The notes under the pieces were generated by a model. That model had not been told where the DNA came from, did no database searches, and saw only the letters and a program-made list of their open reading frames with translations. Position numbers and translations under genes: made by a program. A stretch of 10,500 bases of DNA from a virus (lineage: Duplodnaviria; Heunggongvirae; Uroviricota; Caudoviricetes), in IMG/VR virus record IMGVR_UViG_2703718869_000008, positions 1 through 10,500 of that record; one strand, written 5' to 3'. Every line of letters begins with the position of its first letter. Within the stretch, counting starts at the first letter, position 1. This document shows, piece after piece, positions 5,028-6,904 of the stretch.

Positions 5028-5860
5028 ACAGTTTAACGGCAAATAACCGTTTGTCGCAACAGCTGGTGTTCAGTGTCGCTGAACACCTGTTGTTACGGCA
5101 TGAATGCAGATTACCAAATCACCTGGCTGTAAGTAACCACAGAGAACTTTACCTGACTGTGGGGGGCGAGTTGTGCTGGAACTTAACCGCTGGTTTCGTG
5201 ACGGAAGAGGGCTTTATGTCCATGTTATTCGTTGGGAGCCAGAAACACAGCGCGTTATCTATCTTCGCAAAGACTACCCGCATGAGTGCTTTAGTCCTTT
5301 GTGGAAATTCAGGCGTGATTTTGTTGAGTGTGAAGGACCACCAGCACATTGATTCTGCCATTCCGGGACGTTACACTGTTCAGGCACCTTATAAAGCGGG
5401 TGTCGGGATTGGCGTCCTGGAATTGCATACGGCGACAATTGGCGCGTTAGCGTCTTTTTTGTTGCTACAACTCAGCTATACCCAAATTATGGTGGGCTGG
5501 GTGGGGGCACCGAAAGGTGCGCCGGTTTCCGTATGCGCCGGTTACGCCAACCCTGCTCAGTTCACCACCAGCGAAATTGGCGTTTCCGGTGGTGGAAGTT
5601 ATCCATTGCATACGGAGGCTGCCATCATGGCTACTGTCCCAGCCCTCTCTCGTCTGAATGATGAAGACTTACATAAACTCAGTTATGTAACAACTGCACT
5701 ACGTGCTCTGCGCAAGGTAACTCTTTCGGATCCGCAGGCGCATCAGGTTTTGGTAGAAACCCTTCTTAACTTGCAGGCTGAACGTATTCGTCTGGCGGAT
5801 AAGGCTAATTTTCATATTCACCGTCTCCTGAATATCAGCGGAGGGCATCGTCATGCTTAA
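5024..5860 (+). CDS. 278-codon ORF of uncertain authenticity. It may be a composite of several shorter coding units.
   Basis: It is the only long ORF over this span and is ATGA-coupled to the upstream gene. First-position G enrichment over 5354-5626 supports this frame there. Three points argue against a single gene: a better-supported alternative frame at 5173-5352, an internal hairpin followed by T6 at 5441-5460, and a strong internal SD GGAGG (5614-5618) plus ATG 5627 that would give a 77-aa product (MATVPALSRLNDEDLHKL...). Confidence 0.4.
   Translation: MNSLTANNRLSQQLVFSVAEHLLLRHECRLPNHLAVSNHRELYLTVGGELCWNLTAGFVTEEGFMSMLFVGSQKHSALSIFAKTTRMSALVLCGNSGVILLSVKDHQHIDSAIPGRYTVQAPYKAGVGIGVLELHTATIGALASFLLLQLSYTQIMVGWVGAPKGAPVSVCAGYANPAQFTTSEIGVSGGGSYPLHTEAAIMATVPALSRLNDEDLHKLSYVTTALRALRKVTLSDPQAHQVLVETLLNLQAERIRLADKANFHIHRLLNISGGHRHA
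5173..5352 (+). CDS. Small DUF4222-like protein (59 aa, GTG start) in the -1 frame relative to the 278-codon ORF.
   Basis: My own translation is MLELNRWFRDGRGLYVHVIRWEPETQRVIYLRKDYPHECFSPLWKFRRDFVECEGPPAH. It aligns without gaps to residues 25-70 of the product of 5853..6089, sharing W, G, V, E.Q+VI and PL..FR. A G-rich stretch (GGGGGGCGAG) lies upstream of the GTG. At 59 aa it is shorter than any ORF listed in the track. Confidence 0.55.
   Translation: MLELNRWFRDGRGLYVHVIRWEPETQRVIYLRKDYPHECFSPLWKFRRDFVECEGPPAH
5441..5463 (+). terminator. Weak terminator-like hairpin plus T-run (possible tR1 analogue) inside the 278-codon ORF.
   Basis: GGCGC-gtta-GCGTC (5 bp including one G-U pair) followed by TTTTTTGTT. 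The stem is short, so this is tentative. Confidence 0.3.
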
Positions 5861-6089
5861 TCCGTTGATCCTCAATATTTGCCGTTTGCTTCAGCGTAAA
5901 AAAACATCAATTCCTACAGTTGGGCAGTGGTACACCACGCCTGCAGGGCATGTTCTACGTGTCAGCCTGGTTGACCGTGAATGTCAGAAGGTGATTTGTG
6001 AACCGCTGGGCCGTAATTACCGCGTCAGTATGCCGCTTATAGCCTTTCGCTCCGGAAAAAACATGAAGCATCTCGGAGGTGCAGCATGA
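5853..6089 (+). CDS. Small DUF4222-like protein (78 aa).
   Basis: SD GGAGGG (5840-5845) lies 7 nt before the ATG. The stop overlaps the next start as ATGA. The core GQWYTTPAGHVLRVSLVDRECQKVICEPLG fits the pattern I recall for DUF4222. Confidence 0.7.
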   Translation: MLNPLILNICRLLQRKKTSIPTVGQWYTTPAGHVLRVSLVDRECQKVICEPLGRNYRVSMPLIAFRSGKNMKHLGGAA

Positions 6090-6904
6090 GTATGGAGCTG
6101 ATGGTTAAAGCGATGAAAATTCGAGTGGGTAATCCATTGCGAAAACTGGTTCTGATCAAGCTGGCTGATAATGCCAGCGATCAGGGTGAGTGCTGGCCCA
6201 GCTACCAGCATATTGCTGACCAGTGCGAGATTAGCAAACGTTCTGTGATGAATCATATTGCGGCCCTTTGTGATTCCGGGCTGGTAAAAAAAGTCACCCG
6301 GAAAGGTGAAAAAGGTAACTCAAGTAATATCTATCTCCTTCATCTTGATGGTGCAGGAGATTCACTAGGGGGTAGTGCAAATAATTCACTATCTAGTGCA
6401 GCAAATTCACCAGGTAGTGCAGGAGTTGCACCAGGGGGTGGTGCAGGAGATTCACCCAGAACCAGTCACTCTTTTGAACCAGTCAAAGAACCAGTCAATG
6501 AACCAATAGCTGTTGGTGCATCTGCTGATGAGTCCGTGCGAGTTCGTTCAAACCGACCGGAATACTCTCCGGAGTTTGAGCAGGCATGGCTGGCATACCC
6601 CAAACGTGCTGGTGGCAATTCAAAATCTGCAGCCTTCAAAGCCTGGAAAGCTCGTTTGAATGAGGGGGTAAAACCCGAAACCATGCTGGAAGGTGTGAAA
6701 CGCTACGCGGGCTGGGTATCTGCGATGGGTAACAGCGGCACACAATTTGTGAAACAGGCTGTCACGTTCTTTGGTCCGGATCGTCATTTCGAAGAATCCT
6801 GGGAAGTTCCTGCGGTATCTGCAGCCAGACGCGAGGACCCGTACTTCAAAGCCAGTTACGACAACGTGGACTACAGCCAGATCCCGGCAGGATTCAGGGG
6901 GTGA
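6086..6904 (+). CDS. Replication initiator, O-like (N-terminal winged HTH, internal iteron-encoded linker, conserved C-terminal domain), 272 aa.
   Basis: SD GGAGG lies 6 nt before the ATG. The N-terminus LRKLVLIKLADNASDQGECWPSYQHIADQCEISKRSVMNHIAALCDSGLV is an HTH_36-like motif typical of phage initiators. The C-terminus contains FEQAWLAYPKRAGGNSKSAAFKAWKARL. The position and the internal iterons parallel lambda O. Confidence 0.8.
   Translation: MSMELMVKAMKIRVGNPLRKLVLIKLADNASDQGECWPSYQHIADQCEISKRSVMNHIAALCDSGLVKKVTRKGEKGNSSNIYLLHLDGAGDSLGGSANNSLSSAANSPGSAGVAPGGGAGDSPRTSHSFEPVKEPVNEPIAVGASADESVRVRSNRPEYSPEFEQAWLAYPKRAGGNSKSAAFKAWKARLNEGVKPETMLEGVKRYAGWVSAMGNSGTQFVKQAVTFFGPDRHFEESWEVPAVSAARREDPYFKASYDNVDYSQIPAGFRG
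6350..6508. repeat. Candidate replication origin inside the initiator gene: five 16-bp iterons plus a second triplet repeat.
   Basis: RGTGCA-N5/6-T(T/G)CAC units sit at 6350-6365, 6374-6389, 6395-6410, 6416-6431 and 6440-6455. Spacings are 24/21/21/24 bp, and the first and last copies are identical (GGTGCAGGAGATTCAC). These are followed by AACCAGTCA at 6461, 6477 and 6489, plus a degenerate AACCAATA at 6501. Confidence 0.6.

Follow-up and report, generated by a model that had tools for sequence, protein, structure and literature searches.

In the phage DNA analysed here (10,500 nucleotides, hereafter the window), a stretch of about 200 nt that lies after the cII-like gene and before the replication genes has no stop triplet in any forward frame, is bracketed by a direct repeat and is rich in GC hairpins, which raises the question of what this segment is. 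The preliminary description put the stop depletion first and offered multi-frame coding constraint, an embedded structured RNA downstream of a terminator-like hairpin, or a small insertion with a duplicated target as explanations. In our view, sequence comparison makes it very probable (about 0.9) that positions 5349–5629 are a P4/P1-type antisense-RNA immunity cassette of an SfV/Ayreon-like lambdoid prophage. This is an ordinary element, known from earlier work, namely a C4/CI-type antisense RNA with two repeated target sites that would shut off the next gene (Table 1). The case for it is built on exact complementarity and covariation, and the identity of the RNA stands independently of the stop statistics.

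Table 1. Features of the cassette and its surroundings, in window coordinates
Feature	Position	Strand	Details
Long open frame, 278 aa	5024–5860	+	Spans promoter, IsrK, C4 and targets; in frame into the 77-aa ORF
Putative cassette promoter	5349–5377	+	−35 TTGATT 5349–5354, 17-nt spacer, −10 TACACT 5372–5377
IsrK / P4 seqA-type leader sRNA	5384–5460	+	Rfam RF01394, 58.9 bits vs gathering score 50, model 1–77
C4 / P4 CI-type antisense RNA	5485–5572	+	Rfam RF01695, 80.7 bits vs gathering score 45, model 1–87, E = 5e-15
Target-presenting hairpin	5563–5594	+	CACCACC 5563–5569 with GGUGGUG 5588–5594; loop holds UUGGCG (Y2) 5577–5582
Downstream target X2 and Shine-Dalgarno	5605–5618	+	ATTGCATACGG 5605–5615 fused to GGAGG 5614–5618
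First ORF after the cassette, 77 aa	5627–5860	+	ATG 8 nt after GGAGG; 55 nt past the C4 3′ end

The stop-free run is real, but it covers 204 nt on the + strand (5451–5654, between TAG at 5448–5450 and TGA at 5655–5657) and not the 205 nt from 5450 first reported. It is the longest in the window on both strands, the runners-up being 173 nt (+) and 161 nt (−). Where nine or ten stops had been expected, the window-wide stop density gives 8.7 per 204 nt and dinucleotide-preserving shuffles of the segment a mean of 5.2. None of 5000 such shuffles was stop-free, whereas a run of at least 204 nt arose in 0.36% of shuffles of the region 5300–5800 and in 2.45% of whole-window shuffles, the last being the fair post-hoc figure. 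The same 2.45% measures the residual share of chance in the run. In 2.3 Mb of enteric phage loci, 45 runs of this length or more were found, 26 of them on the same cassette class and 19 outside the IsrK-C4 cassette (about 0.09 per 10.5-kb strand). The run is unusual, not extreme.

Comparison with related cassettes shows that the all-frame stop-freeness is not conserved: a run of 190–211 nt is found only in the GTATGCG loop class, to which the window belongs, and shrinks to 19–99 nt in the other enteric classes, whose loops carry an out-of-frame TGA or TAA. The stop depletion is a by-product of GC-rich helices, of the stop-free loop and target of this class, and of one open frame similar to that of P4 eta; although the preliminary description led with it, it is incidental and does not mark the function.

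The C4 and isrK models of Rfam both match at full length, on the + strand only and above their gathering scores. The C4 RNA has a basal stem of 17 bp (5490–5506 with 5551–5567), the 5′ arm of which is the G-rich tract remarked on earlier, followed by hairpin 1 (5507–5520, GCACC-GAAA-GGUGC), already recognised for its GNRA-like GAAA loop, and by hairpin 2 (stem 5521–5525 with 5538–5542, loop 5526–5537). The loop of hairpin 2 contains the element X′, CCGUAUGC, at 5529–5536, and a second element, Y′ (CGCCAA, 5545–5550), lies in the unpaired junction. The minimum free energy fold reproduces the consensus structure exactly (−45 kcal/mol, z = −3.9), and none of 200 shuffles was as good. In an alignment of 49 distinct cassettes, comprising 16 loop classes plus phage P4, 95.3% of the cells are paired, against 36–50% with the partners slid, and double changes occur in 25 of the 44 pairs, among them 10 of the 17 pairs of the basal stem and all five of hairpin 1. 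Of the original explanations, the structured RNA located beyond the terminator hairpin is the one that the Rfam match and these abundant compensatory changes bear out, the latter having been proposed as a check.

The IsrK-type RNA lies directly upstream of C4, with a spacer of 24 nt, and carries the upstream targets of C4. Its hairpin 1 (5384–5403) is followed by hairpin 2 (5404–5419), with UUGGCG (Y1, 5409–5414) in the loop, by the single-stranded target X1 (ATTGCATACGG, 5422–5432) 10 nt after Y1, and by an intrinsic terminator found in a terminator scan (stem 5441–5454, U-run 5455–5460). What had been called a tR1-like hairpin (5441–5460) is indeed a terminator hairpin, but it belongs to the IsrK-type sRNA. 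The minimum free energy fold equals the Rfam structure, the stability of this RNA by itself is ordinary (z = −0.78), and RF01394 is also matched at the equivalent place in P4 and Gifsy-1. The putative promoter, read from the sequence, would place the +1 at about 5384; it agrees with the consensus at 8 of 12 positions and can be aligned in every column to the Gifsy-1 PisrK (TTGACA-17-TATATT), and divergent cassettes have TTGAC-type hexamers at equal distance. A consensus promoter scan of 4900–6200 made no call.

The 11-bp direct repeat is confirmed as exact, with exactly two copies in the window, starting at 5422 and 5605. Its core, GCAUACGG (5425 and 5608), is complementary to the X′ element of the C4 loop, and the loop sequence UUUCCGUAUGC (5526–5536) is complementary to both copies of the 11-nt repeat, while the junction element Y′ is complementary to the UUGGCG in the hairpin loops at 5409 and 5577. 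A second repeat, AATTGGCG, is present at 5437, as noted before, and at 5575 (not 5574), and a third, shorter copy, ATTGGCG, is found at 5408–5414. The pairing of CACCACC with GGTGGTG likewise exists, in the target-presenting hairpin, with its 5′ arm one position upstream of the 5564–5570 first given (91.8% vs 31.5% paired in the alignment; 31–66% over all slid versions). Both sides have changed in five of its seven pairs, and the 5′ arm shares 5 nt (5563–5567) with the C4 basal stem.

The predicted duplex between 5608–5618 and the C4 loop at 5526–5536 has 11 bp (8 Watson-Crick, one A-U, two G-U) and spans the Shine-Dalgarno sequence of the 77-aa ORF; this helix is paired in 92.3% of the aligned cells, with compensatory changes in 6 of its 11 pairs. 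In the 16 loop classes, sequences matching the loop are found about 60 nt upstream, inside IsrK, and abutting GGAG downstream, the full downstream complement being kept in 10 of 15 loop classes vs 6 of 210 mismatched pairings. Since the repeats covary with the C4 loop across the 16 classes, they are antisense target sites. In the aligned sequences of related cassettes, covariation with the C4 loop is seen for the stems as well as for the two target sites, and specificity is set by a variable 7-nt segment of the hairpin-2 loop plus its two targets. A duplex-energy scan of the 29-nt loop and junction against the window was not specific, as other GC-rich sites score similarly.

The 77-aa ORF occupies the position of P4 kil and Gifsy-1 anrP, and its variability by codon position (12/4/16) is coding-like. 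It gave no BLASTP alignment with P4 Kil and nothing in sequence searches of Pfam (beyond Ash), NCBIfam or PDB, and neither this ORF nor the following one (5853–6089) matched the Icd or Ant families. The PHROG families of this cargo are without tested function, and the AF2 model (pLDDT 84) has two long helices forming a generic two-helix hairpin. By analogy with the known cassettes, the 77-aa ORF would be the gene whose ribosome-binding site is masked by C4.

The ATG of the long frame and the stop codon of the cII-like gene share the sequence ATGA (5024–5027), and elsewhere the frame is annotated as 'ash family protein' or 'immunity region'; Pfam Phage_ASH matches its residues 117–209 (nt 5372–5650, E = 1.8e-16). 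The frame is open in all E. coli/P4-type cassettes, where the spacers of 80, 119, 125 and 164 nt are all 2 mod 3. The variable columns by codon position show no periodicity over IsrK (9/9/8), C4 (11/13/14) and the targets (12/13/10), while 5173–5352, which corresponds to DUF4222 in another frame, is coding-like (11/9/20). Over its RNA part the frame thus appears to be without selection at the amino-acid level. It is a positional analogue of P4 eta, and the transit of ribosomes through it may matter, in an eta-like manner, whereas its amino-acid sequence apparently does not.

These observations bear on whether the locus could simply be an ordinary protein gene (Ash family, immunity region or Rha-type N-terminus), with incidental RNA matches. 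Besides the Phage_ASH match, public annotation has only a CDS here, the frame of the E. coli/P4-type cassettes is kept open, with spacer lengths in multiples of 3, and in Gifsy-1 mutations of the start and stop codons spoke for orf45 being translated from the AUG within the 5′ stem of C4, SPA-tagged orf45 constructs having also been made (PMC4825925). However, the Pfam domain occupies precisely the span of IsrK, C4 and their targets, where codon periodicity is absent and the helices and loop-target pairs covary; moreover, the frame is not conserved in Gifsy-1 and the non-enteric members, in contrast to the RNA structure, and orf45 is conserved in nucleotides, not in amino acids (PMC12197685). 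We consider a plain protein gene very unlikely. Multi-frame overlapping coding, with two or three forward frames translated and selection purging the stops, is still harder to sustain, even if it would explain a segment with zero stops where shuffles average 5.2, and one frame is truly long. The run dwindles in the sister enteric classes, with their out-of-frame stops in the loops. Furthermore, no third-position excess is seen over 5384–5626 in any frame, frame 0 is broken in non-enteric cassettes, whose spacing is not a multiple of 3, and the substitutions are compensatory for RNA helices.

Pure chance, by which the stop-free run and the hairpins would have no common cause, is to us just as improbable as multi-frame coding: whole-window shuffles do reach this length at times and 19 such runs exist elsewhere in the phage DNA, but here the run falls on members of two Rfam families and on covarying structures, and most runs of this size (26 of 45) sit on the same cassette class. 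The remaining proposal, that the 183-bp interval is an insertion between the copies of an 11-bp target-site duplication, has in its favour the exact repeat that brackets the interval, the chance of an 11-mer repeat in about 240 nt being below 0.01. It can nevertheless practically be set aside, because the repeats are complementary to a loop within the interval and both copies change together with that loop in 16 classes, and because P4 and Gifsy-1 share the upstream/downstream pair with different sequences. A BLAST search with the 'empty site' junction gave, in the best 12 of 991 records, two-piece matches only, spanning 371 bp, so that the interval-free relatives suggested for comparison did not appear among them. 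No transposase or inverted-repeat ends were found, and the module boundary relative to an O157 prophage lies at 5651, not at the repeats.

How the antisense cassette would work can be proposed from P4, P1/P7 and Gifsy-1. The weak internal promoter would make mostly short IsrK RNA, and processing of read-through transcripts, by RNase P/PNPase as expected of the C4 family, would release stable C4 to serve as an immunity repressor. By the same analogy, C4 bound to the downstream site would block ribosome binding at the 77-aa ORF, the lack of translation favouring Rho-dependent termination ahead of the replication genes (O-like, 6086–6904), and the leader's upstream site could be bound by C4 as well. 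Short IsrK, which has the same target sequences, might be a competitor for C4 or the cis structure and so turn expression on, and transcripts from the early promoter, if translated through the cassette in the long frame as with eta, might escape C4 control. The outcomes differ among the models: in P4 termination is premature, in P1 translation is repressed, and in Gifsy-1 IsrK acts as an activator. Choosing among these for the present locus would be an extrapolation by analogy.

The cassette is found in thousands of E. coli prophages, with a match in 3235 of 5426 complete genomes, at a median of two places per genome, and public records label it as protein only, either as 'ash family protein', as 'immunity region' or as part of 'Rha family' regulators. 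The result has mainly annotation value and implies no new biology: the IsrK and C4 RNAs and their targets, once recognised, explain the odd sequence statistics. By analogy, they may provide a second, RNA-based control layer before the replication genes of a lambdoid phage. Lambdoid prophages have C4 loop specificity classes in common with P4-like satellites or islands: for the GATAACG class, the cargo is of Rha type or 77 aa long in lambdoid surroundings and Kil-like in P4-like elements, and the GTATGCG class also precedes an unrelated 81-aa ORF adjoining an integrase-like gene. Given these shared classes, a prophage C4 could act on satellites in the same cell in trans, or vice versa. That this happens, together with an eta-like translational bypass of immunity, is a tentative idea that we judge more doubtful than probable; if true, it would amount to RNA-based cross-immunity or anti-satellite defence, on which Barquist et al. 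reportedly speculated in 2013. The eta-like bypass is not known from any lambdoid phage.

Among known phages, Escherichia phage Ayreon is 100% identical over 5370–5660, with the ORF annotated as "immunity region", and orf37 of Shigella phage SfV has 98.6% identity over the 71-aa C-terminus of the ORF. The SfV and Ayreon proteins and the 'ash family protein' of PGAP (Pfam PF10554) represent the same long ORF as in the window, the SfV and Ayreon records having protein annotation only, with the RNA genes and targets unannotated. The c4 of P1/P7 immI is the RNA around which Rfam built its C4 family; immI is an operon that Citron and Schuster reportedly described in 1990 as c4 antisense RNA, icd and ant. 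The Rfam model RF03163 (c4-a1b1) matches the window weakly (20.4 bits vs a gathering score of 46.7). The unpaired a′/b′ of c4 pair with a1/b1 upstream and a2/b2 downstream, the latter across the ribosome-binding site, and specificity classes lead to heteroimmunity (PMC12197685); the same paper states that c4 blocks the ribosome-binding site (PMC12197685). The window differs from P1/P7 in having no downstream Icd or Ant homologue and in having an IsrK-type terminated leader.

P4 matches these two Rfam families as well, with isrK (8692–8615) ahead of C4 (8507–8420) as in the window, followed by CAGGAGGCTGCCATCATGGCTAC at the kil start. Two papers give the order of its immunity region as PLE, seqA leader, CI RNA, seqC and kil/eta (PMC10111431, PMC3632133), equate IsrK and C4 with seqA and CI, a pair also present in lambdoid prophages (PMC3632133), and place CI inside eta, the translation of which prevents termination (PMC10111431). 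As in the window, the P4 RNA has a loop and a junction complementary to one upstream and one downstream site, the downstream site is directly adjacent to GGAGGCTGCCATCATGGCTAC, which does not differ between the two, the first ORF begins 55 nt past the RNA, and a long ORF, coupled to the gene before it, extends across the promoter and the RNAs. The loop and junction themselves differ (CCUGUGAA and UUCUCAC in P4, CCGUAUGC and CGCCAA in the window), as does the IsrK-C4 spacer (about 107 nt vs 24 nt); the window cargo is unrelated to Kil, and P4 is a satellite, whereas the window is from a lambdoid prophage, whose cI/cro switch is made of proteins.

In Salmonella Gifsy-1, where IsrK, orf45, anrP and STnc1160 have been characterised (Hershko-Shalev et al. 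2016, PMC4825925), isrK lies at 34316–34240 and C4, which is orf45/STnc1160, at 34214–34131, and anrP starts 55 nt after C4. Among the experimental properties of IsrK are Hfq binding and the activation in trans of the read-through mRNA (PMC4825925). The Gifsy-1 locus adjoins antQ in the late region, whereas the window cassette precedes replication genes, its loop/target specificity is CGGUGAU/AUCACCG, and its cargo is an antirepressor-like protein, compared with the 77-aa ORF of the window. The Gifsy-1 hairpin-2 loop is shorter by 4 nt, so that the stop of orf45 (45 aa) and the start of anrP overlap in an ATGA, while in the window the AUG at 5489 is in frame with the ATG at 5627. The two nevertheless have much in common: both are in lambdoid prophages, the isrK-C4 gap is 25 nt in Gifsy-1 and 24 nt in the window, the promoter hexamers align, UUGGCG is present in the IsrK hairpin-2 loop, an AUG is found in the C4 5′ stem at about +106/+107, and the downstream gene begins 55 nt past C4.

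The segment free of forward stop triplets belongs to an IsrK-C4 (seqA-CI) immunity cassette of textbook type, which both Rfam and the literature already describe. In the Rfam scan of the window exactly two matches exceed their gathering scores, each on the + strand (table), and C4 folded alone reproduces the Rfam consensus exactly (-45 kcal/mol, z = -3.9); the embedded structured RNA sensed in the preliminary description is real. The GNRA hairpin noted there is C4 hairpin 1 (5507-5520), and the G-rich tract supplies the 5' side of the 17-bp basal stem of C4. The CACCACC hairpin also exists, with this arm at 5563-5569 and not at 5564-5570. The "tR1-like" hairpin at 5441-5460 is what terminates the IsrK-type RNA, as an intrinsic terminator.

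Features of the cassette and its flanks, with variable alignment columns counted at codon positions 1/2/3
Feature	Position	Strand	Rfam score	Positions 1/2/3	Pattern
isrK (RF01394)	5384-5460	+	58.9 bits (gathering score 50)	9/9/8	no periodicity
C4 antisense RNA (RF01695)	5485-5572	+	80.7 bits (gathering score 45), full model	11/13/14	no periodicity
Target region				12/13/10	no periodicity
DUF4222 gene	5173-5352, another frame			11/9/20	coding-like
77-aa ORF	5627-5860			12/4/16	coding-like

Judged by complementarity, the repeats in this region are antisense targets of C4. The 11-mer ATTGCATACGG is an exact direct repeat at 5422 and 5605, as had been described, and AATTGGCG is present in two copies, at 5437 and 5575, the second one position away from where it had been placed; an additional ATTGGCG is found at 5408. 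The C4 hairpin-2 loop carries CCGUAUGC (5529-5536), the reverse complement of both 11-mer cores (5425-5432 and 5608-5615), and at the downstream copy the pairing lengthens to 11 bp (5526-5536 with 5608-5618), spanning the Shine-Dalgarno (SD) sequence GGAGG (5614-5618), 8 nt before ATG 5627. CGCCAA, left unpaired at the C4 junction (5545-5550), complements UUGGCG, a sequence found in the loops of IsrK hairpin 2 (5409-5414) and of the downstream hairpin 5563-5594 (5577-5582). A third UUGGCG (5439-5444), making up the 5' side of the IsrK terminator stem, occurs only in the window's loop class, other classes carrying GACGCGCCAGCGTC instead; termination could in principle be influenced if C4 paired here. 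The anti-SD motif UUUCC occurs twice, in the C4 loop (5526-5530) and in the downstream-hairpin loop (5583-5587), and in the fold of the isolated downstream region the latter pairs with GGAGG, which may offer a second, cis-acting way of sequestering the SD.

A pattern scan of viral contigs retrieved 120 loci, giving 76 unique extracts with 16 different hairpin-2 loop sequences. About 10 nt past the IsrK UUGGCG hairpin a sequence matches the loop in every class (0-1 mismatch in 8), and a perfect complement to the loop (at least 7 nt) abuts GGAG downstream in 12 of the 16. This downstream complement is kept in 10/15 classes when matched, against 6/210 mismatched pairings. Compensatory changes, which the preliminary description had proposed to seek by covariation analysis, are found in an alignment of 49 distinct cassettes, P4 included: pairing across the C4 helices and the two intermolecular helices reaches 95.3%, compared with 36-50% when slid, and 25 of 44 pairs show double-sided changes. 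Compensatory pairs number 5/5 in hairpin 1, 6/11 in the helix between the loop and the downstream target fused to the SD, and 5/7 in the downstream hairpin, which is 91.8% paired.

The stop-free run, previously given as 5450-5654 (205 nt), extends from 5451 to 5654 (204 nt), between TAG 5448-5450 and TGA 5655-5657 with no forward stop triplet in between, and is the longest on both strands of the window. In dinucleotide-preserving shuffles, a check suggested with the original observation, 5.2 stops are expected in the segment and 0/5000 shuffles were stop-free, while 204 nt was attained in 0.36% of cases for shuffled 5300-5800 and in 2.45% for the shuffled whole window. Among real enteric phage loci (2.3 Mb), 26 runs of at least 204 nt lie on the same cassette and only 19 elsewhere. 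The run, repeats and hairpins are confirmed, and taken as a whole the observation moderately exceeds chance.

All-frame stop-freeness is nevertheless not conserved across cassettes: runs of 190-211 nt occur only with the window's loop GTATGCG, whereas other enteric loop classes have just 19-99 nt, with out-of-frame TGA or TAA in their loops (e.g. UUGAUCA, GAUAACG). What is retained in all E. coli/P4-type cassettes is a single frame that stays open over 204 nt or more ahead of the AUG in the C4 stem and continues in frame into the downstream ORF. The IsrK-to-C4 spacer distances of 125 and 164 nt (from Rfam coordinates) and of 80 and 119 nt (measured separately) are every one 2 mod 3. The frame is not retained in Gifsy-1 or in non-enteric members. 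This pattern fits a P4 eta-like need for ribosome transit and not for amino-acid sequence. The 204-nt run then results from three things together: the single open frame, helices rich in GC (56%, compared with 49% in the window), and loop and target sequences that lack stop triplets by happenstance.

The Pfam PF10554 'Phage_ASH' match (5372-5650; aa 117-209 of the 278-aa ORF 5024-5860) coincides exactly with IsrK, C4 and the targets, and codon periodicity is absent from it. Public records there hold a protein only ('ash family protein', the PGAP label for 5315-5860, 'immunity region', or a fusion to 'Rha family' regulators), with RNA genes left unannotated; the Phage_ASH family may for the most part represent conserved RNA in translated form. 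The DUF4222 gene lies wholly within the same long ORF, and its third-position variability supports DUF4222, not the long ORF. Its stop TGA (5350-5352) falls within the -35 hexamer of the putative cassette promoter. Just past the cII-like gene and inside the long ORF, in its 5' part, a perfect 10-bp hairpin with a T-rich tail (GGTGTTCAGTGTCGCTGAACACC, 5065-5087) may serve in termination or regulation.

Homology to an O157:H7 prophage (L002 3732) breaks off at 5651, 4 nt short of where the stop-free run ends, and restarts at 5922. By this alignment the break is a mosaic junction, the cassette being a portable module ahead of different cargo genes: 64-aa Kil-like ORFs, the 77-aa ORF, and ORFs of 120, 181 and 185 aa. 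Inspected by eye, the products of 120 and 181 aa resemble Rha-type proteins; for the 77-aa product, predicted to be a two-helix hairpin, no relatives of defined function were found. The loop class GATAACG is common to P4-like satellites, with Kil-like 64-aa cargo and int-alpA RNA nearby, and lambdoid-type cassettes (L015, L013 and L029 versus window-type loci such as L041 and L024), which raises the possibility that prophages and satellites are cross-immune through RNA. In six viral loci (L010, L015, L034, L061, L062, L091), Rfam int-alpA RNA matches occur at a distance of 1.2-3.7 kb from the cassette's C4, consistent with P4-like satellites or islands.

To the RNA structures, their complementarity to two sites, the SD masking and the covariation of all these, established here at the sequence level, a mechanism can be added by analogy with P4, P1 and Gifsy-1. 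The internal promoter would yield mostly short IsrK, and read-through transcripts would be processed to C4, which would block translation of ORF 5627, so that, by polarity, less transcription would enter the O-like replication gene (6086-6904). IsrK, bearing the same targets, could antagonise C4, and early-promoter transcripts may escape control by translation through the cassette.

Among the CHARACTERISED systems compared with the window (P4, Gifsy-1, phage Ayreon and P1/P7), IsrK and C4 have already been equated with P4 seqA and CI, and the pair reported also in lambdoid prophages (PMC3632133). P4, with Rfam matches to isrK (8692-8615) and C4, its CI RNA (8507-8420), has upstream and downstream target pairs like the window, though in its own sequences, and shares the identical motif GGAGGCTGCCATCATGGCTAC, in P4 at the kil start, 55 nt past the RNA. 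CI lies within the eta ORF, whose translation prevents termination (PMC10111431). In Gifsy-1 (L125), where IsrK, orf45, anrP and STnc1160 have been described (PMC4825925), isrK (34316-34240) and C4 (34214-34131, the orf45/STnc1160 region) lie 25 nt apart, with the anrP start 55 nt past C4. The putative window promoter TTGATT-17-TACACT (5349-5377) aligns with TTGACA-17-TATATT of Gifsy-1. When 34131-34214 of Gifsy-1 is set against 5489-5629 of the window, the Gifsy-1 hairpin-2 loop is 4 nt shorter, so that the end of orf45 overlaps the anrP start as ATGA; in the window, unlike Gifsy-1, AUG 5489, the orf45-start equivalent, is in frame with ATG 5627, making a 123-aa N-terminally extended product possible. 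PHROG 4908 is built on calls of this kind. Ayreon is 100% identical to the window over 5370-5660 and annotates ORF 5024-5860 as a CDS, "immunity region". In P1/P7, the ribosome-binding site is masked by c4 (PMC12197685).
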